NCBI RefSeq assembly: GCF_044647545.1
Contig: NZ_CP172818.1
DNA from: Escherichia coli
GTDB lineage: Bacteria > Pseudomonadota > Gammaproteobacteria > Enterobacterales > Enterobacteriaceae
DNA length: 64,000 nucleotides
Direction: 5' to 3' (one strand)
Under the pieces are notes generated by a model. That model was given only the letters and a program-made list of their open reading frames with translations. It ran no database searches and was not told where the DNA came from. Positions 1,320 to 62,879 of this stretch are shown here, piece after piece. The position numbers were made by a program, and so were the translations under genes. Numbering within the stretch: the first letter of the stretch is position 1; each line of letters starts with the position of its first letter.

Positions 1320-1830
1320 GTCGGGTGTTTTCTGTCTGCGTCAGCTTCCTCCCGGCCTGCAATTTCAGTTGAATCAGACTAATTGAAGCCATTGCAGTAT
1401 CAATCAGTGACTGGCGCTGTGCTTCTGCCGCTTCTATTGCGGCACCGTATTGTGCCTCGGTATCGGTTACCCATTTCTCACCATCCCATTTATCGTATGG
1501 TGTTAACGGAGCGATAGTGGTCATATTTTCAGGGTAATCCCCTGGCGCTGTGATTTCTTTTGGTTCTCCCGTTTCGGTGCTATAAACAATTTCACCGCGA
1601 TGGTCTGGCACATATTTCCACGAGTTCAAATCCGTTGAGCGGCAAATTGCATAACCCGTTTTATGTGTACCAGGTGCATCTAAACAAGAACATGCCGGGA
1701 TACCGACACCGACAGCAAGATATTCGGTTGATGTTGAGATATATTCCTGTGTCCCATTATCATAGTTATAAACGGTAATATCCCCTGCCTTTACCGCGAT
1801 CAGCGCATCATTTAATACAGCTCCACCCAT
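1228..1830 (-). CDS. tfaE: Tail fiber assembly protein TfaE
   Basis: 200-aa ORF with typical Tfa C-terminal region (...VPDIYWPELPEA). Confidence 0.8.
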   Translation of the reverse strand: MGGAVLNDALIAVKAGDITVYNYDNGTQEYISTSTEYLAVGVGIPACSCLDAPGTHKTGYAICRSTDLNSWKYVPDHRGEIVYSTETGEPKEITAPGDYPENMTTIAPLTPYDKWDGEKWVTDTEAQYGAAIEAAEAQRQSLIDTAMASISLIQLKLQAGRKLTQTENTRLNAVLDYIDAVMATDTSTVPDIYWPELPEA

Positions 1831-2330
1831 TATGCAGCCCTCACGATATAATTAAATGAAATATTTCGTGGACGTGATTCGTTACCGAATTTATCTGAAC
1901 CATCAGTATTTCTCGCTGAATATGTTTGGAGGATTGTCCCTGATGATGGATTCGCATTATATTCATTTGTTCCTGCTGGATAGTATGACATTGCACTATT
2001 GTCATCTTTGAAAACAGCAGACATCAATCCATCACCACCACTTCCGTAAGCAGTTGTAAGAAATGACGGTGATCGAAAGAAAGACTATTTTGTGCCGAAA
2101 GTAAGGGAACGACCAGAATCTACCCCGCGCCCATCATCCCAGCCACGAATAAACTCACCACGTAAATCAGGCAATTTATTTGTCGGGTAAGCCTTCGCCA
2201 GTTTTGGATATTCAACGGCAGAAAAAGCCGCACCGTTGCATTTCAGCCAGCCAGTAGGCGGTGTGGCTGAAGGCCACGGAACAGGCACACCAACGGGTAA
2301 TGCCGAACCTTCTCCCAAACCAAGGTTTAT
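1830..2330 (-). pseudogene. stfE: Alternative tail-fiber variable segment StfE, interrupted by in-frame TAG at 2085-2087
   Basis: ORFs 2085..2390 and 1830..2027 are in the same frame, separated by a TAG; junction motif NLGLGEGSAL parallels StfP; an uninterrupted frame would give 166 aa. Confidence 0.6.
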
Positions 2331-2335
2331 GAAAA
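2310..2335 (+). other. pixR: Hin/Gin/Cin-type inversion crossover site just upstream of pin
   Basis: ttctcccAAACCaaGGTTTatgaaaa closely resembles hix/gix/cix consensus; reverse complement matches the 489-514 site core. Confidence 0.7.
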
Positions 2336-2392
2336 TGCGGAATAAGCGGCAAATGGCATCATTCCTGCTTTTGTCAGGGAGAGCTACCATGC

Positions 2393-2941
2393 TTATTGGC
2401 TATGTATGTGTGTCAACAAATGACCGAAACACAAATCTACAGCGTAATGCGCTGAACTGTGCAGGATGCGACTCATTTTTGAAGACAAGATAAGCGGTAC
2501 AAAGTCTGAAAGGCCGGGACTGAAAAAACTGCTCAGGACATTATCGGCAGGTGACACGCTGGTGGTCTGGAAACTGGACCGGCTGGGGCGTAGTATGCGG
2601 CATCTGGTCATTCTGGTTGAGGAGTTGCGCGAACGTGGCGTTAATTTTCGCAGCCTAACAGATGCTATTGATATCAGCACATTCGATGGGGCGTTTTTCT
2701 TTATGTGATGGGGGCCTTGGCTGAAATTGAGCGTGAACTGATTGTTGAACGAACAAAAGCTGGACTGGAAACTGCTCGTGCACAGGGACGAATTGGTGGA
2801 CGTCGTCCCAAACTTACACCAGAACAATGGGCACAAGCTGGACGATTAATTGCAGCAGGAACTCCTCGCCAGAAGGTGGCGATTATCTATGATGTTGGTG
2901 TGTCAACTTTGTATAAGAGGTTTCCTGCAGGGGATAAATAA
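2393..2941 (+). pseudogene. pin: Serine invertase Pin, disrupted by two frameshifts
   Basis: Three consecutive ORF pieces in three frames (MLIGYVCVSTNDR... stop at 2495-2497; ...RLIFEDKISGTKSERPGLKK... stop near 2706-2708; ...MGALAEIERELIVERTKAGL...GDK); together they cover a Gin/Hin-like invertase. Confidence 0.8.
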
Positions 2942-3047
2942 AGTTAAAGACACTTTGTGTACAAAAGAAAGTAAAACAACAGCAACTTGTTGCAATTTTA
3001 TCAATAAAAGTAGTATTGTCGTGAAAAATTGATTAAAGATTAATATT

Positions 3048-3881
3048 ATGCATGTTTTTGATAATAATGGAATTGAACTGAAAGCTGAGTGTTCGATAGG
3101 TGAAGAGGATGGTGTTTATGGTCTAATCCTTGAGTCGTGGGGGCCGGGTGACAGAAACAAAGATTACAATATCGCTCTTGATTATATCATTGAACGGTTG
3201 GTTGATTCTGGTGTATCCCAAGTCGTAGTATATCTGGCGTCATCATCAGTCAGAAAACATATGCATTCTTTGGATGAAAGAAAAATCCATCCTGGTGAAT
3301 ATTTTACTTTGATTGGTAATAGCCCCCGCGATATACGCTTGAAGATGTGTGGTTATCAGGCTTATTTTAGTCGTACGGGGAGAAAGGAAATTCCTTCCGG
3401 CAATAGAACGAAACGAATATTGATAAATGTTCCAGGTATTTATAGTGACAGTTTTTGGGCGTCTATAATACGTGGAGAACTATCAGAGCTTTCACAGCCT
3501 ACAGATGATGAATCGCTTCTGAATATGAGGGTTAGTAAATTAATTAAGAAAACGTTGAGTCAACCCGAGGGCTCCAGGAAACCAGTTGAGGTAGAAAGAC
3601 TACAAAAAGTTTATGTCCGAGACCCGATGGTAAAAGCTTGGATTTTACAGCAAAGTAAAGGTATATGTGAAAACTGTGGTAAAAATGCTCCGTTTTATTT
3701 AAATGATGGAAACCCATATTTGGAAGTACATCATGTAATTCCCCTGTCTTCAGGTGGTGCTGATACAACAGATAACTGTGTTGCCCTTTGTCCGAATTGC
3801 CATAGAGAATTGCACTATAGTAAAAATGCAAAAGAACTAATCGAGATGCTTTACGTTAATATAAACCGATTACAGAAATAA
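3048..3881 (+). CDS. mcrA: 5-methylcytosine-specific restriction endonuclease McrA (HNH)
   Basis: 277-aa ORF with C-terminal HNH motif (CENCG...HHVIPLSSGG...CPNCH). Confidence 0.9.
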   Translation: MHVFDNNGIELKAECSIGEEDGVYGLILESWGPGDRNKDYNIALDYIIERLVDSGVSQVVVYLASSSVRKHMHSLDERKIHPGEYFTLIGNSPRDIRLKMCGYQAYFSRTGRKEIPSGNRTKRILINVPGIYSDSFWASIIRGELSELSQPTDDESLLNMRVSKLIKKTLSQPEGSRKPVEVERLQKVYVRDPMVKAWILQQSKGICENCGKNAPFYLNDGNPYLEVHHVIPLSSGGADTTDNCVALCPNCHRELHYSKNAKELIEMLYVNINRLQK

Positions 3882-4125
3882 AATTATTTATTAAAGTCAC
3901 ATTTAAGACGTAATACCCTACAGGGTAAAAATTTTCTCTGATCTTAACTTCTGCAAATGTTAACTGCTATTTTTATGCTAAAAATGGTTATCAAAACTCA
4001 AAAACACATGTTTATAATCAATGAGTTATAGAAATGCTAAGGGCTAATGAGTTATATGCAAATTAGTAAAATTATGTTGCTATGTCAGATAGTTACGATT
4101 TAGTCATCTAACTAATGTACGCCAT

Positions 4126-4278
4126 ATGGGCTGGACTGAAGCCGCAGACTTGATTGTTAAAGGTATGGAAGGCGCAATCAACGCCAAGACTGTAACCTAT
4201 GACTTCGAACGTCTGATGGAAGGCGCTAAACTGCTGAAATGTTCAGAGTTTGGTGACGCGATCATCAAGAATATGTAA
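4126..4278 (+). pseudogene. icdC: icdC: displaced 3' fragment of isocitrate dehydrogenase at prophage attR
   Basis: Encodes [50 protein letters not shown], the Icd C-terminus, without an upstream body. Confidence 0.85.
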
Positions 4279-4301
4279 TTACTACATGTGTTAAATATTG
4301 T

Positions 4302-4334
4302 AACGGGCGTATAACACGCCCGTTGTTTTATTTA
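4302..4334 (+). terminator. Rho-independent terminator (icd 3' terminator)
   Basis: Hairpin aacgggcgt-ataac-acgcccgtt followed by gttttatttat. Confidence 0.6.
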
Positions 4335-4380
4335 TGTGGGTATTATTAATAGCACATTGAGCATATTTATATGAAGCCCA

Positions 4381-4704
4381 TTACTTGAGCCCATATGGGC
4401 ATATTTTTATAATGCAACTATTATGCAAACATTTATTTGTTATTTTGCTTTCTCCTGGAGGACACTCTTGACTGCTTTTGAGTAAACTCCATAAATCCTT
4501 GTTGAATGGTGCGATGTTATAAATAGTAATAGGATATTCTTTATCCTTAAGGATAATACCAGATTTAACCGGTGTAAATATCCTGCCAGGAGGAAGAAAT
4601 ATAGTGGATTGATACCAGATGATCATTTTCATATCACCCCATATGGCTGAAAAAGATATGCCGCATGTAGGTTGAATTACCGTGTCAATTACTATCCACT
4701 TCAT
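4381..4704 (-). CDS. iraM: Anti-adaptor protein IraM
   Basis: 107-aa [33 protein letters not shown]... recognised as IraM. Confidence 0.9.
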
Positions 4705-5148
4705 TTGTTATGTCTTATCCCACGGTGCTTAATATAGTTCATTTGGATGTTCATTTCTTGATTTTGCATATGTGTATATTACTCCCAAAAAAATAAATTA
4801 ATTAAAAATTAATGTCATTATCTATATAAAACAAAATTTAAAGCAAGGAATCTCAATAGAGATTAAACAAAATGAGATTTAGTGAAAACATTAAATTATT
4901 CACTTCGTTTTAGATTTGTTTAGCTAAAATGTTATACATTCAAATGACTGAATATTCTGTAATTAAAACATAGCCTTTATGCTACTTTGAGCCAATTTGC
5001 TAAACATTATGGTTGGCCTTTTAATATAACGATAATGATGAATATAAGCATGACCTGAGAATAAGGTTTCAATTTTTTAGTTATATAAAAATGGTTAAAC
5101 CCGTTCCTGACTAAAATACATATAATCGGATGATGACTAAACCAAAAC

Positions 5149-5200
5149 ACATGTGCGTTAAGTATTGAAACGGGCGTATGGCACGCCCGTTGGTTTTATA
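5149..5200 (+). repeat. Second copy of the icd-terminator-like hairpin module (direct repeat of 4283-4334)
   Basis: acatgtgcgttaagtattgaaacgggcgtatggcacgcccgttggttttat versus acatgtgttaaatattgtaacgggcgtataacacgcccgttgttttattt. Confidence 0.55.
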
Positions 5201-5406
5201 AATATGTTAACCGTTATAAAATAACGTATAGAAAGTCAAGTGATCACATTTCAAATATTAAGTTGATAGTATTGGCCTGGTGATTATTTATGGGTGGCAA
5301 TAAAAAGACAGTATTTATCATCCATAGGGATAGTCTCTGCACTTTTATTTCCATTATGCTAATGCCTTACTGAATTATGAAGCATTTCTTAAGCTTCCAA
5401 CTTTAG

Positions 5407-5811
5407 CTAGATTAATGGTTTATTGTTTTCTACATCTTCAATATATAAAAGCGTATTATCAATGGCGTAGTAACTGCGTTTGTTATGATTAACATCAGTA
5501 ACCCACCGGAAAACGCCCGCGTCTGCCAGTGTTGAACAGTATTCCCGAAATGTAGATTTTCCGCAAATATGAAGCAATGCGGCCTCTTTTATTTTAGCAG
5601 GGTTCTTGGTCGTACTAACTTTTAACAGGTTCCTGGTTCCTCTTAATAACAAAACCGTGTCATCGTGAGTAATAATTCTGATGTTATCCGTAGCTAGATA
5701 ATAAATGTAATGTGCAATACGGTGATGTTTTAATTCTGAATAAAACCAGGAGAAGTTTTGCTCTTTTCTCACTTGCTCAAACATCTTTTGAAAAACAACG
5801 ACCTGATCCAT
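5407..5811 (-). CDS. ycgX: Uncharacterized protein YcgX
   Basis: 134-aa ORF at the K-12 ycgX position. Confidence 0.8.
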   Translation of the reverse strand: MDQVVVFQKMFEQVRKEQNFSWFYSELKHHRIAHYIYYLATDNIRIITHDDTVLLLRGTRNLLKVSTTKNPAKIKEAALLHICGKSTFREYCSTLADAGVFRWVTDVNHNKRSYYAIDNTLLYIEDVENNKPLI

Positions 5812-6031
5812 CAGGATAATAACCTCTTGTTAGTTGTGAGACTGCGTAGTGTGCACGATCGGTTTTACCACTTCAATCTGGTCTGTCCTTTGGCTGTGAT
5901 ATGTACAAAGTGTGAAAGGGGGATTACCTGAATTCTCCCGGTGAGCATTTTGTAATGGACCAGCTCCGGTACAAACGCTGTTGTGGGTTCAGATTATAAC
6001 ATTCTGTCTAAGGGGCGGGATAAAGGTGAAA

Positions 6032-6763
6032 TTAGGGGGCATGGAAGATGACTTTATAACCTTGCTCACCCCAGTGTTGTAAAAGTTCGTTTTGCCTTCT
6101 CGTTGGTGCCATGCCTGTCCAGACAATTAATGTTTGCGTCGGGAACAGTTCCGGGCGCGGCGATTCAATGGGATCAGCAAGAACAGAAATGTGCCATCCT
6201 GACAATGATAAACGCCATGCTTCCAGCCACAATCGTGCTCTCTCTTCAACATTCCACGCCATCAGAATGGCTTCTTTACCGGGCTTACGGCGCATTTCGA
6301 AAAGCGAGGCTGCTGCGTATTCAATTAATGCGCCGTCAAACATACTGCTCATAATGCGGGAGGTGTTGTGATCAAGCACGAGACGCTGGCGAACAGGAAG
6401 GTAAACATGATTAATCAATTGATCTACTGGGTACTCTCGGCCCAGTGAAATAATTCTCGCGCGTAGTTTGGCAGGATTAGCCATACGAAGAATTGACATC
6501 ATCTCTTCTTGCAGGCGGCTCCAGTCATCTTCCGTATCCTGGCTGGTGGTTTCCAGTAATGCTTTAACTTTGCCTACAGGGACGCCATTACTTATCCAAC
6601 GCTTGATCTCTTCGATGCGTTGTATGTCTTCTTCATCAAAGAGTCGGTGTCCGCCTTCACTGCGCTGTGGTTTTAACAAACCGTAGCGGCGTTGCCAGGC
6701 CCGGAGAGTGACAGGATTAATCCCGCAACGTTCAGCAACATCACCAATGCTGTAATAAGCCAC
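6032..6763 (-). CDS. bluR: MerR-family repressor BluR
   Basis: 243-aa ORF with N-terminal MerR HTH ([30 protein letters not shown]...). Confidence 0.9.
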
Positions 6764-6967
6764 AATTCCTCCTTGCGGTCACAAATCTCCGTCGCCTGTA
6801 CACGACCCAATAATACTTTGTACAATATACGCTAAAATTGTACAAAGTATAAATAAGATTTCAGCTAAATTGAATGAAACATTATTTTTAATGTGGATTA
6901 AATTTAAACATAACGTATTCATTTTCACGATGATTTTCAGAAATCATACGAAATAATGTGCTGGAAA

Positions 6968-8179
6968 TTATTTTTTCTCCGGCCACGCAACTGAAGGGAT
7001 ACCATTCAATTTAGCTTTCGCAAACAGATCTCCCTGAAACATCTCAATTCCTGCAGATTCAAGCCACATCCACTCTTCTGGTGTTGTCACACCCATAGCA
7101 GAGACTTGAATTTCAAGTGATGTACAGCATTTTATGATCGCTTGAATAATTGCCTGCCGTGGCCCGCTTTTATGAACATTGGTAATCAATTCCTGACTGA
7201 TTTTAATTCTGTCAGGCTGGAAGCGTGACAGGAGTAACAAACCGGCAAAACCTGCGCCAAAATGATCAATTGCTACACTGATACCGGCAGCCTTAAGCGA
7301 TTTAATCGCTTCTGCAAACTCATCAAACCGAGATATGACTTCACTTTCAGTAAATTCAACGATGATTTGTTCAGGCACCAGAGCATTGGCCTTTATTTCA
7401 TCAAGTAAAAAAGAGACTGCGTCAGGTTCGTTAACCAGGGTCATAGGTAATAGATTGATTGAAATCATTTTATCACCGAGCTCAAGTGCGTGTGCCATCG
7501 CGAATGCAAGCGCCTTACTTTTGAGATCCGCTGTATAGATTTCCCCGTCTTTACGCTGCCCAACCGCTATAGCTGATGGGCTATCTTCATTTTTTTGCAC
7601 AATGGCTTCAAAAGCGATTATCCGCCGCGATAAGGGATCGACAATAGGATGAAAGGCAAAGTGGTCGTTTATAGTTGGTGAAAGGGTACAGGAATCAAGT
7701 TCTTTATCAGATCCGTCAGCGATAAAAAGCCAGGAGTCTTCGGCAGGGATCTCGAAATAGGTTGCTTGTTCGGTTGCAAGGACAAAAGTACGAAAAAATT
7801 GTAGCGCTCTGTCATCATAAGTTAGCTGAAATTTTGATGTGCCTTTGTCGAATACGGCCTGTAAAACGTCATCTCGCTCGTGCAGGCGCAAATCAAATAA
7901 TTCCATTCCCGCTTTGTCAAAACGGCGAGCAGGCGCGTAATCGCACATCAGCTCAACAATATTATAGTGCCGTGGATCCTGGCATATAGCCCGATATATC
8001 ATTTTAACCTGTTCTTCCGGACCTTCCAGAAGCTGGAAAAAATGAGAACCATTAAACAGTAAGATCCCTGTTACGTCAGACAGCATGTTCCTGCGATTTG
8101 CTATCGAAACCATTTCTTCGATTTTTTTGACAGGTTCGTCGTCACGTATATGGCTACGATAAATAAGGGTGGTAAGCAT
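6968..8179 (-). CDS. bluF: Blue-light sensor BluF (BLUF + degenerate EAL)
   Basis: 403 aa from ATG at 8179 (MLTTLIYRSHIRDDEP...); ORF-track start at 8257 is an upstream extension. Confidence 0.9.
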   Translation of the reverse strand: MLTTLIYRSHIRDDEPVKKIEEMVSIANRRNMLSDVTGILLFNGSHFFQLLEGPEEQVKMIYRAICQDPRHYNIVELMCDYAPARRFDKAGMELFDLRLHERDDVLQAVFDKGTSKFQLTYDDRALQFFRTFVLATEQATYFEIPAEDSWLFIADGSDKELDSCTLSPTINDHFAFHPIVDPLSRRIIAFEAIVQKNEDSPSAIAVGQRKDGEIYTADLKSKALAFAMAHALELGDKMISINLLPMTLVNEPDAVSFLLDEIKANALVPEQIIVEFTESEVISRFDEFAEAIKSLKAAGISVAIDHFGAGFAGLLLLSRFQPDRIKISQELITNVHKSGPRQAIIQAIIKCCTSLEIQVSAMGVTTPEEWMWLESAGIEMFQGDLFAKAKLNGIPSVAWPEKK

Positions 8180-8416
8180 TAACTGTCCAGGGTAATGGGA
8201 GAGGCGAGAGTAAGACGGTAACAGACATATCTTCCGGTGTCTTTCTTTTAATACCAAAACATAACTGTTTCTTTACATTGATAAAAAATGGAAAAAGTTG
8301 AAGATGAGTTGGCGAAAATTTTTGTATAGGTTGTTATTTAAATGATGCAATATTTTTTATCATAACCTGTTGTTTTGTATGTATTAGCACTAAATGCAAA
8401 AAATTAATTTATCATT

Positions 8417-8438
8417 TTGTACACATATTTCGTACAAG
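8417..8438. promoter_or_regulatory. Candidate MerR-type (BluR) operator in ycgZ promoter
   Basis: Imperfect inverted repeat ttGTACAcatatttcgTACAAg about 60 bp upstream of ycgZ ATG. Confidence 0.3.
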
Positions 8439-8492
8439 TTTGCTATTGTTACCTCACTTAACATTGATTAACATTTTTAACAGAGGCGTAGC

Positions 8493-8729
8493 ATGCATCA
8501 AAATTCAGTGACTTTAGATTCTGCGGGAGCAATCACTCGTTACTTTGCAAAAGCTAACTTGCCTACTCAGCAGGAAACTCTCGGAGAAATTGTGACTGAG
8601 ATTTTGAAAGATGGACGTAATCTGAGTCGAAAGTCGCTTTGTGCCAAACTTCTAGGTCGACTGGAACAAGCGACAGGGGAAGAGGAACAGAAACATTATA
8701 ATGCACTAATTGGGTTGCTTTTTGAATAA
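8493..8729 (+). CDS. ycgZ: YcgZ
   Basis: 78-aa ORF, first gene of ycgZ-ymgA-ariR-ymgC cluster. Confidence 0.85.
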   Translation: MHQNSVTLDSAGAITRYFAKANLPTQQETLGEIVTEILKDGRNLSRKSLCAKLLGRLEQATGEEEQKHYNALIGLLFE

Positions 8730-8771
8730 TGCAACAGCCTGATTATTTAACAGGTTAGCTATGAAGTCGTT

Positions 8772-9044
8772 ATGAAGACATCTGATAATGAAAGTACAAA
8801 ATATGAAATTACTGGCCAGGCGGTGCTCCAGATACTGCGCATGAAGATAAATTTTTCGTTGCAGACTCTTATTAAGCAATTACTCGTAATGAAATCTGTT
8901 GAGGAAAATGCTTTCCGACGAGATTTAATTGACAGCATAATTCGTGATTTTAGTAACAGTGATACAGGAGGGCCAAACAGAAGAACAGCGATAACTGACA
9001 ATAAAAGTATTTTCAATGGTAAGAAAATAAACAGAATACATTAA
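8772..9044 (+). CDS. ymgA: YmgA
   Basis: 90-aa ORF. Confidence 0.85.
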   Translation: MKTSDNESTKYEITGQAVLQILRMKINFSLQTLIKQLLVMKSVEENAFRRDLIDSIIRDFSNSDTGGPNRRTAITDNKSIFNGKKINRIH

Positions 9045-9072
9045 AATTTCATAAGTAAGATGAGAGGTTACT

Positions 9073-9339
9073 ATGCTTGAAGATACTACTATTCATAATG
9101 CAATAGCTGATAAAGCGTTATCAAGTTACTTTCGCAGTTCGGGTAATTTGTTAGAAGAAGAGTCAGCTGTGTTAGGGCAGGCTGTCACCAATTTAATGCT
9201 TTCAGGCGATAATGTTAATAATAAAAATATTATCTTAAGTCTGATACACTCCCTGGAAACAACAAATGATATCCTCAAAGCTGATGTGATCAGAAAAACA
9301 CTGGAAATCGTGTTGCGATACACAGCGGATGATATGTGA
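9073..9339 (+). CDS. ariR: AriR (YmgB), acid-resistance/biofilm regulator
   Basis: 88-aa [23 protein letters not shown]... Confidence 0.85.
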
Positions 9340-9451
9340 CTTTTAATTATTAAGTATAAATTTATAGAAAACTCATTCATCTTATTTTTGTCTGTCGCTT
9401 TAGACTATACACAGCATAATTTTATTGGGTTAATATTTCTACGAGGCTGAC

Positions 9452-23092: not shown

Positions 23093-23424
23093 AATCATTC
23101 GCCTCTTTAAATATATAAATTGTAATGAAACTCCTGTTTTACAACTATTAAAGAATTTTACTTCATCTAATTCATAGTTAGCCGGGCGGGATGCGTCAAT
23201 GTCTTTATTTCTATTAATATGATAAATATCAAACAATGTTTAATGTCATTATGGCTGATGCTTCTATTCTATTTTTTAGCCGGGTGATATTTTTCATTTC
23301 TGCTGGATGAGCGTCGTCGCCAGAAGGCGCGTGAGCACAGGATAAGAGAACGAAAAATCAGCAGTCTATGCAGCGACAAATATTGATAGCCTGAATCAGT
23401 ATTGATCTGCTGGTAAGAACAGAC

Positions 23425-61964: not shown

Positions 61965-62139
61965 ATAGCCGCCTTGTTGTAATGACAACATTTTGCGGCT
62001 ATTCTTGAATTGTTCTGGTTCAAGATTAGCCCCCGTTCTGTTGTCAGGTTGTACCTCTCAACGTGCGGGGGGGTTCTCTTTCCAGCAACCAATGCCACCA
62101 GGGATAAAGCCCCCGCAACATTGCGCCTCACCGGATAAC

Positions 62140-62707: not shown

Positions 62708-62879
62708 ATAGCCGCCTTGTTGTAATGACAACATTTTGCGGCTATTCTTGAATTGTTGATGGTTCAAGATTAGCCCCCGTTCTGTTGTCAGGTTTTACCT
62801 CTCAACGTGCGGGGGTTTTCTCTTTCCAGCAACCAATGCCACCAGGGATAAAGCCCCCGCAACATTGCGCCTCACCGGA

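Follow-up and report, generated by a model that had tools for sequence, protein, structure and literature searches.

Organization of the prophage–host junction

The sequence at positions 3882–4278 of the window, which is the whole stretch of 64,000 nucleotides of Escherichia coli DNA that was analysed, is most probably part of the attR of an e14-type prophage that a tyrosine integrase inserted into host icd, at the 3' end of the gene (probability roughly 0.93). The gene order is mcrA, a spacer, a 164-nt 3' fragment of icd, the icd terminator and iraM, as follows.

mcrA, 3048–3881, plus strand: intact 277-aa open reading frame for a type IV modification-dependent HNH restriction endonuclease (EcoKMcrA).
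Spacer, 3882–4114, no strand: 233 bp, AT-rich (GC 27%), phage-derived, 100% identical to K-12 e14.
att core or crossover block, 4115–4124, no strand: ATG-TACGCCA, the normal form being the 11-nt ATG YTR CGCCA.
icdC, 4115–4278, plus strand: native icd 3' end (codons ~362–416 plus the stop) displaced by the prophage.
Native icd intrinsic terminator, 4300–4326, plus strand: 11-pair hairpin and then a T run, identical in the intact icd of ST648.
iraM, 4381–4704, minus strand: first host gene past the junction, annotated as iraM in K-12, XH988 and ST648.

The window is identical to K-12 e14 from about 2745 to 4116 (0 differences in 1.37 kb including mcrA), and this identity ends at 4116/4117, at the ATG of the att core. 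Differences from K-12 begin at 4117 and amount to 8–9 per 100 bp across icdC. The host flank at 4120–5400 shows no difference from the prophage-free strain ST648; the match continues past icdC through the terminator, iraM and ymgL, all with 0 differences, and the host allele to the right of the junction is non-K-12. Because the e14 identity stops and the ST648 identity starts within a few nucleotides, the phage/host switch is placed in ATG (4115–4117)/TA (4118–4119). The sharpness of this boundary, together with the related assembly CP092703.1 described below, is what points to an integrase-mediated origin, as attL, intE and xisE lie outside the window.

The region is collinear with K-12 e14 (15093–19380 of the K-12 locus, L001) over ymfQ, the tail-fibre genes, pin, mcrA and icdC, in agreement with the e14 arrangement named in the original prediction. 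Beyond iraM follow ycgX, bluR and bluF, and collinearity with the K-12 chromosome, uninterrupted by any large insertion, runs on as far as chaA (97.6% identity). As had also been predicted, mcrA is the last prophage gene and lies inside the prophage boundary, the e14-identical tract extending past it to 4116/4117, and the stretch 4126–4278 does align to the icd 3' end, with the boundary at 4115–4117. The gap of about 245 bp proposed between mcrA and icd is correct as the distance from the mcrA stop to the ATG of the downstream reading frame at 4126 (244 nt), but icd homology begins 11 nt before this ATG, at 4115–4117, so the spacer is 233 bp long.

Among 5426 complete E. coli genomes, icd runs straight into iraM in 3024 (intact attB), and the mcrA 3' end and the spacer are found in 339, mostly K-12 laboratory derivatives, with both together in 338 of the 339. 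This co-occurrence and the common intact icd–iraM arrangement place mcrA inside the element and make the spacer a part of it. The right junction of e14, comprising mcrA, the attachment arm and the displaced icd tail, is itself well known and ordinary; descriptions of the right end of e14 go back to Brody & Hill (1988) and Hill et al. (1989), both cited through PMC6379469 and PMC11148124.

The att core and the crossover

In the window the core is one nucleotide short, the missing position falling between 4117 and 4118. In K-12, attL and attR are identical only over ATGCTGCGCCA (11 nt) and diverge after it, which bounds the crossover to this block, that is, within ATG-YTR-CGCCA at 4115–4124. The junction in the IMG/VR locus L019, which looks like a tandem prophage array at icd, reads ATGCTGCGTCAC; a phage origin of its T would confine the crossover to the first 8 nt. 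At core positions 4–6, both sides of a given lysogen have the same triplet, CTG in some independent lysogens and TTA in others, a pattern that would be expected of markers inside the overlap region of a tyrosine recombinase. The 1-nt deletion is absent in 332 genomes with the e14 junction and in 15 IMG/VR loci. Undamaged cores of the CP092703.1 type read ATGCTGCGCC or ATGTTACGCC, the former in CP092703.1 itself.

A clean free-phage attP was sought in IMG/VR, where the matches were attR junctions or tandem-array hybrids, and the crossover was narrowed only to the extent given above. The only near-full phage match was ON470584.1 (L007, 'Escherichia phage vB_EcoM-689R6, partial genome'). This entry holds the host genes icd, rluE, nudJ, mnmA and hflD, and its pin-mcrA is joined straight to inverted tail genes; it is a scrambled prophage region and not a packaged genome.

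The inversion switch and the lesions of the prophage end

The invertible tail-fibre segment and its invertase gene lie upstream of mcrA.

Left crossover site of the invertible segment, 489–514, reverse complement TTCTCCTAAACTAAGGTTTTCGAG: inside the tail-fibre gene 212–841.
Right crossover site of the invertible segment, 2310–2335, TTCTCCCAAACCAAGGTTTATGAAAA: just upstream of pin, as in K-12 e14.
pin pseudogene, 2389–2941, plus strand: Din-family serine invertase with the 5' two-thirds divergent and frameshifted.

The two 26-bp sites, which are presumably of the Din family, judging by the hix/gix consensus, are inverted relative to each other and ~1.8 kb apart. This spacing agrees with the e14 inversion of 1797 bp in XL1-Blue (PMC11148124). 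Inverted sites with alternative fibre C-termini and tfa, as in Din-family switches, are present in the window, the alternative fibre segment and the second tfa being on the minus strand, but an intact invertase gene is not. The 3' third of pin (from ~2745) is identical to K-12 pinE, while the alignment as a whole contains four 1-nt indels and the substitution R8C, and the reading frame is split in three (34, 80, and 78 codons). The four indels are absent in 13 IMG/VR loci and in CP092703.1 and were seen in no other sequence examined. The description of the region as a frozen inversion switch is therefore apt for this sequence, with its four pin indels and R8C, but does not extend to e14 in general, since K-12 pinE and the pin of CP092703.1 are intact.

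Several patches in this region are unusual. The 5' part of pin and the sequence upstream of it form a sharply bounded divergent patch (2337–2728; ~88% identity to K-12 pinE), whose best match elsewhere (96.3%) is a paralogous 'recombinase family protein' of other prophages. On either side of this patch, the adjoining sequence matches CP092703.1 exactly. The tfa gene in the expressed orientation (843–1232) is frameshifted, with a cluster of substitutions and three indels at 1156–1261. The alternative tail-fibre C-terminal segment (1830–2390, minus strand) has an in-frame stop near 2085.

CP092703.1 (L025, GCA_022488285.1, 1209790–1230419) is a near-isogenic public genome and encodes an identical tail-fibre protein. 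It has an intact pin of 184 aa, and lit, intE and xisE are located upstream of the same tail-fibre gene in a short K-12-like layout. Although a separate assembly, it contains the same junction and the same host icdC allele, and a single real mismatch was found against window positions 4120–10813. The window departs from it only in the patches 1156–1261, 1880–2105 (Ns in CP092703.1), 2337–2728 and 4117–4119. Several of them fall on sequences with homologous copies at other places in the genome, namely the tfa 3' ends, the invertase paralogues and the icd duplication. As this near-isogenic sequence is intact at both places, the core deletion and the pin indels must have arisen very recently or else be artefacts of assembly; the lesions fit gene conversion and decay in the recent past as well as mis-polishing of repeats. 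In CP092703.1 itself, N is called at 79 scattered positions over 20.6 kb, mostly in the places where the window is unusual. On the left (ymfD to ~ymfL), its e14 agrees fully with K-12 (100% identity) except for one patch, and its YmfE is identical to K-12 YmfE.

It is a tentative possibility, somewhat against the odds, that the core deletion and the dead pin are real and that the element is grounded, so that excision through Int would no longer occur, leaving mcrA in practice as a defence gene fixed in the host next to a tail-fibre switch that is frozen. The position of the deletion inside ATG-YTR-CGCCA, the sole block where attL equals attR, would suit this, as would the four indels in pin, the frameshift in the expressed tfa and the stop in the alternative fibre segment, while 1.37 kb including mcrA stayed unchanged. 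However, the lesion patches 1156–1261, 2337–2728 and 4117–4119 coincide with repeated sequences, mis-polishing of which would give the same pattern, and CP092703.1 has both the intact 184-aa pin and the ATGCTGCGCC core. Even in a grounded element, RecA-dependent deletion between the icd repeats would remain possible.

A more elaborate and improbable history is that a K-12-type e14 integrated in tandem at the attR of a divergent e14-like resident already in decay, and that a deletion between the two pin genes then left the resident with a new right end. Such a renewal would account for a chimeric dead pin, a pristine mcrA–P arm tract and a core scar, the 1-nt deletion, where a phage CTG met a host TTA; the prophage would then be unable to leave, with the restriction gene alone kept intact.

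The mcrA gene and its K-12 identity

The mcrA gene has no nucleotide difference from K-12 mcrA, and the encoded protein equals K-12 McrA. A full-length match was obtained to the crystal structure of EcoKMcrA (PDB 6GHC, E=2.9e-190), and the N-terminal domain matches the structures 6R64, 6T21 and 6T22. The Pfam HNH domain is at residues 207–256, and the PADLOC model mREase_IV (type IV methyl-directed restriction) is matched end to end with E=6.5e-203. From the protein identity and the structure matches, both parts of EcoKMcrA are present, the N-terminal NEco modification-reading domain and the C-terminal HNH nuclease. EcoKMcrA is a dimer whose N-terminal domains read 5mC/5hmC in the Y5mCGR context and whose HNH domains cut (PMC6182155, PMC7145662); the HNH nuclease has CxxC zinc ligands and H229 (PMC6182155). 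Given its identity to this characterised enzyme, the McrA of the window would be expected to restrict 5mC/5hmC-modified DNA in vivo. AT-rich (GC 38%), mcrA is accessory cargo placed between the invertase gene pin and the proposed P arm; its product would cut incoming DNA modified at Y5mCGR and so protect the lysogen.

The identity of the mcrA–P arm module to K-12 raises the question of whether the junction came in on a piece of K-12 chromosome by homologous recombination, after transduction, conjugation or a cross in the laboratory, or whether the assembly is a chimera that joins K-12 to another strain. The 100% identity is in itself suggestive, as natural isolates usually differ by 0.4–2.4% and the left part of e14 in CP092703.1 is K-12-identical too. 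Nevertheless, either event is very unlikely. The K-12-identical tract ends at most 3 nt from the att core, and the adjoining icdC is non-K-12; homologous import is disfavoured because the K-12 icdC alleles would have come along. Likewise, import of the mcrA module by homologous recombination with the icd repeat as the landing pad is disfavoured, as the K-12 identity ends at the core, outside icdC. As for a chimera, the only sequence common to K-12 and the ST648 type at the joint is an 11-mer, too short for an assembly join, and the independent assembly CP092703.1 has the same junction with the host allele. That the K-12 identity ends at the core next to a non-K-12 icdC argues instead that the junction was formed by site-specific integration into the icd of this host, and the same holds in CP092703.1, where the left part of e14 is largely K-12-identical and icdC is non-K-12.

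The displaced icd 3' end

The 50-aa open reading frame at 4126–4278 translates as quoted in the original prediction (MGWTEAADL...). Over 4120–4278 (159 nt), the sequence shows 0 differences from ST648 and NRZ94505, two prophage-free strains, at the 3' end of their intact icd. It differs at 14 of 159 nt from the e14-borne end of K-12 icd and at 12 of 159 nt from K-12 icdC, which ends in ..GEAIIENM. Relative to K-12 Icd, the fragment has two residue changes, D398E and E414K; E398 and K414 recur in ST648 and NRZ94505, where Icd is intact, and are also encoded by icdC in XH988 and NC101. PGAP calls the equivalent stretch a partial isocitrate dehydrogenase. The C-terminus had been taken as non-canonical; it does differ from K-12 Icd at these two residues, but it is the native host allele.

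In the literature, icdC is the original C-terminus of icd (PMC4444293), and excision of e14 restores icd by fusing its 5' part to icdC (PMC4444293, PMC11148124, PMC6379469). Together with the occurrence of the same residues in the prophage-free intact Icd, this makes icdC an ordinary native allele and the reference the odd one: the end of the K-12 reference Icd (D398, E414) is the phage-supplied replacement. The opposite assignment, in which the fragment is a phage-borne copy, functional icd keeps its native end and the prophage boundary lies to the right of the fragment, can appeal to the two residues that differ from the reference and is refuted by the 0/159 match to prophage-free icd (0 onward through the terminator, iraM and ymgL), by the end of e14 identity at 4116/4117 and not past the fragment, and by the published statement on icdC (PMC4444293).

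In the proposed origin of attR by integration into icd, attP would contain, to the right of the crossover core, the phage's own copy of the last ~55 icd codons and the terminator. After integration, this phage copy would complete a functional icd at attL (outside the window), and the original icd 3' end of the host would stay at attR as the untranslated icdC at 4115–4278.

The icd terminator region is duplicated ~867 bp further on (4287–4329 and 5154–5196, segment 4327–5193). The two copies bracket iraM and ymgK and give a 51-nt alignment of ~86% identity (score 64, compared with 19.7 ± 2.3 for shuffles). NC101 has a single terminator and lacks exactly those 867 bp, and by even sampling of ranked matches the short form without the 867 bp occurs in roughly one-fifth of complete E. 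coli genomes. The duplication and the short form in NC101 indicate that iraM lies on an indel whose two ends are direct repeats of the icd terminator; the indel could be a relic of integration or a repeat-mediated deletion.

The spacer as a proposed P arm

No open reading frame of at least 40 aa is present on either strand of 3882–4125, the only ones being chance frames of 24 and 27 aa. The spacer has no Rfam match, and its folding is no better than that of shuffled sequences (z-score 0.36); a hidden RNA or small gene in the spacer was rejected on these grounds. The following short elements were found.

Weak terminator-like hairpin, 3914–3927, plus strand: TACCCTACAGGGTA and then an A/T run, 3' of mcrA; putative, from a consensus scan.
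Candidate arm-type Int site, 3986–3996, plus strand: GGTTATCAAAA, with the role proposed from the motif match.
Candidate IHF site, 4016–4028, plus strand: AATCAATGAGTTA, matching the consensus WATCAANNNNTTR.
Direct repeat, 4020–4030 and 4046–4056, plus strand: two copies of the 11-nt AATGAGTTATA, candidate Xis sites.

The gap between mcrA and icd is not empty and most likely represents the P arm of attP as kept in attR. The 11-mer GGTTATCAAAA is present in K-12 attL as three tandem copies (0–2 mismatches) that lie in the P' arm, directly behind the terminator mimic, and it recurs in XH988 attL and in the IMG/VR locus L019. One IHF consensus match was observed in the spacer against 0.05 expected per shuffled arm. 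The two copies of AATGAGTTATA are possibly Xis sites, by analogy to X1/X2 of lambda. All of these roles are those of candidates identified by motif matching. The 233-bp P arm would accordingly hold a candidate Int site (3986–3996), an IHF match (4016–4028) and a possible Xis repeat, and the element may be competent for excision.

The attP of lambda consists of a P arm (P1/H1/P2/X1/X2/F/H2), a core and a P' arm with three tandem arm-type sites. The proposed site resembles it in having an AT-rich arm of ~230 bp, one arm-type motif in P with a tandem triplet in P', and, as motif matches, an IHF consensus sequence and a direct repeat between the arm site and the core. It differs in that the e14-type core is inside a protein-coding gene and the homology between attP and attB extends ~210 bp on one side. 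Measured from 3986 up to the last P' repeat, the site is ~395 bp long. The minimal attP of the sister phage 21 is reportedly 366–418 bp (Wang et al. 1997), and this length would fit the range, a comparison that serves as a lead and not as a test.

A relic P arm near 5079–5099 (TAAAAATGGTTA / AGTTATAT) was considered and rejected, as the local alignment score of 24 is at the level of shuffles (23.2 ± 3.0); the duplicate of the terminator alone gives a significant score. Elsewhere in the window, Rfam matches at the gathering level were obtained for the C0299 sRNA (23326–23404) and two rdlD antitoxin RNAs (62012–62079 and 62756–62821). K-12 has three ldr/rdl units in this region, so that the window, with its two rdlD matches, appears to be one unit short.

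Comparison with related elements

K-12 e14 (stfE/tfa invertible P segment, pinE, mcrA, attR, icdC) shares with the window the icd site, the gene order, the identical mcrA and 233-bp arm, and the succession of icdC, icd terminator and iraM. It differs in the tail-fibre region (93% identical) and the 5' part of pin (~88%), and the window is distinguished by its non-K-12 icdC allele, frameshifted pin and core of one nucleotide less. The full-length e14-like prophage of XH988, an example from wild E. coli (~41 kb, with a Mu-like tail module), shares the end from pin and mcrA through the P arm to icdC and the intE/xisE type, and its mcrA has 2 nt differences from that of the window. It differs in having complete head and tail genes and another variable tail-fibre region, and its attL-side cargo is an AAA ATPase and a hypothetical protein instead of ymfD/ymfE/lit. 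The slot between int and attL is variable: ymfD/ymfE/lit in K-12 (L001, 4670–7391), the AAA ATPase and hypothetical protein in XH988 (L004/L005), and a DUF262 protein with a hypothetical protein in ON470584 (35567–37278).

Other lambdoid phages that integrate at icd, namely phage 21, NC-SV of NC101 and the '61icd' type (Wang et al. 1997, through PMC12803456 and PMC10111431), share with e14 the attB in icd, the replacement icd 3' end and the icdC left at attR, and differ from it in the P arm and the attR-side cargo. In the NC-SV-type element of NC101 (L008, 629–5535), the last genes before attR are sitABCD and a gene for a 252-aa hypothetical protein, and mcrA is absent.

The presumed P' arm repeats also differ between elements, being GGTTATCAAAA in e14 and TTCCCCAAAAC in the IMG/VR loci L012 and L024. 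In these two loci, the e14-type attR is followed downstream by a host-like icd 3' end, the terminator and a triple repeat of TTCCCCAAAAC, probably marking the P' arm of another element, phage-21-like, that stands in tandem with e14. In the apparent array of L019 (IMGVR_UViG_2529293224_000002, 4111–14434), an e14-type P arm is joined to another phage-type icd 3' end (ATGCTGCGTCACATGCAGTGGTTC...). It is followed by a P' arm with GGTTATCAAAA repeats and then by pertussis-toxin-like S1 and S2/S3 subunits and a CdtB-like nuclease; the cargo further includes a ricin-B lectin, DinI and Lom.

Implications

Here an e14-type element with the K-12 mcrA allele adjoins an icd background other than that of K-12, and the joint falls precisely on the att core, which points to integrase-mediated spread and not to inheritance of the K-12 chromosome. 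If the lesions are real, the element would be locked in and its tail-fibre switch frozen; if they are assembly or polishing errors, it is not locked in. For annotation, the value of the junction is that the C-terminus of the reference K-12 Icd is phage-derived and that the 'pseudogene' icdC carries the native allele, with little beyond this. For surveys of defence islands, the attR-side slot of e14-type elements is invariably occupied by mcrA, while the attL-side slot varies.
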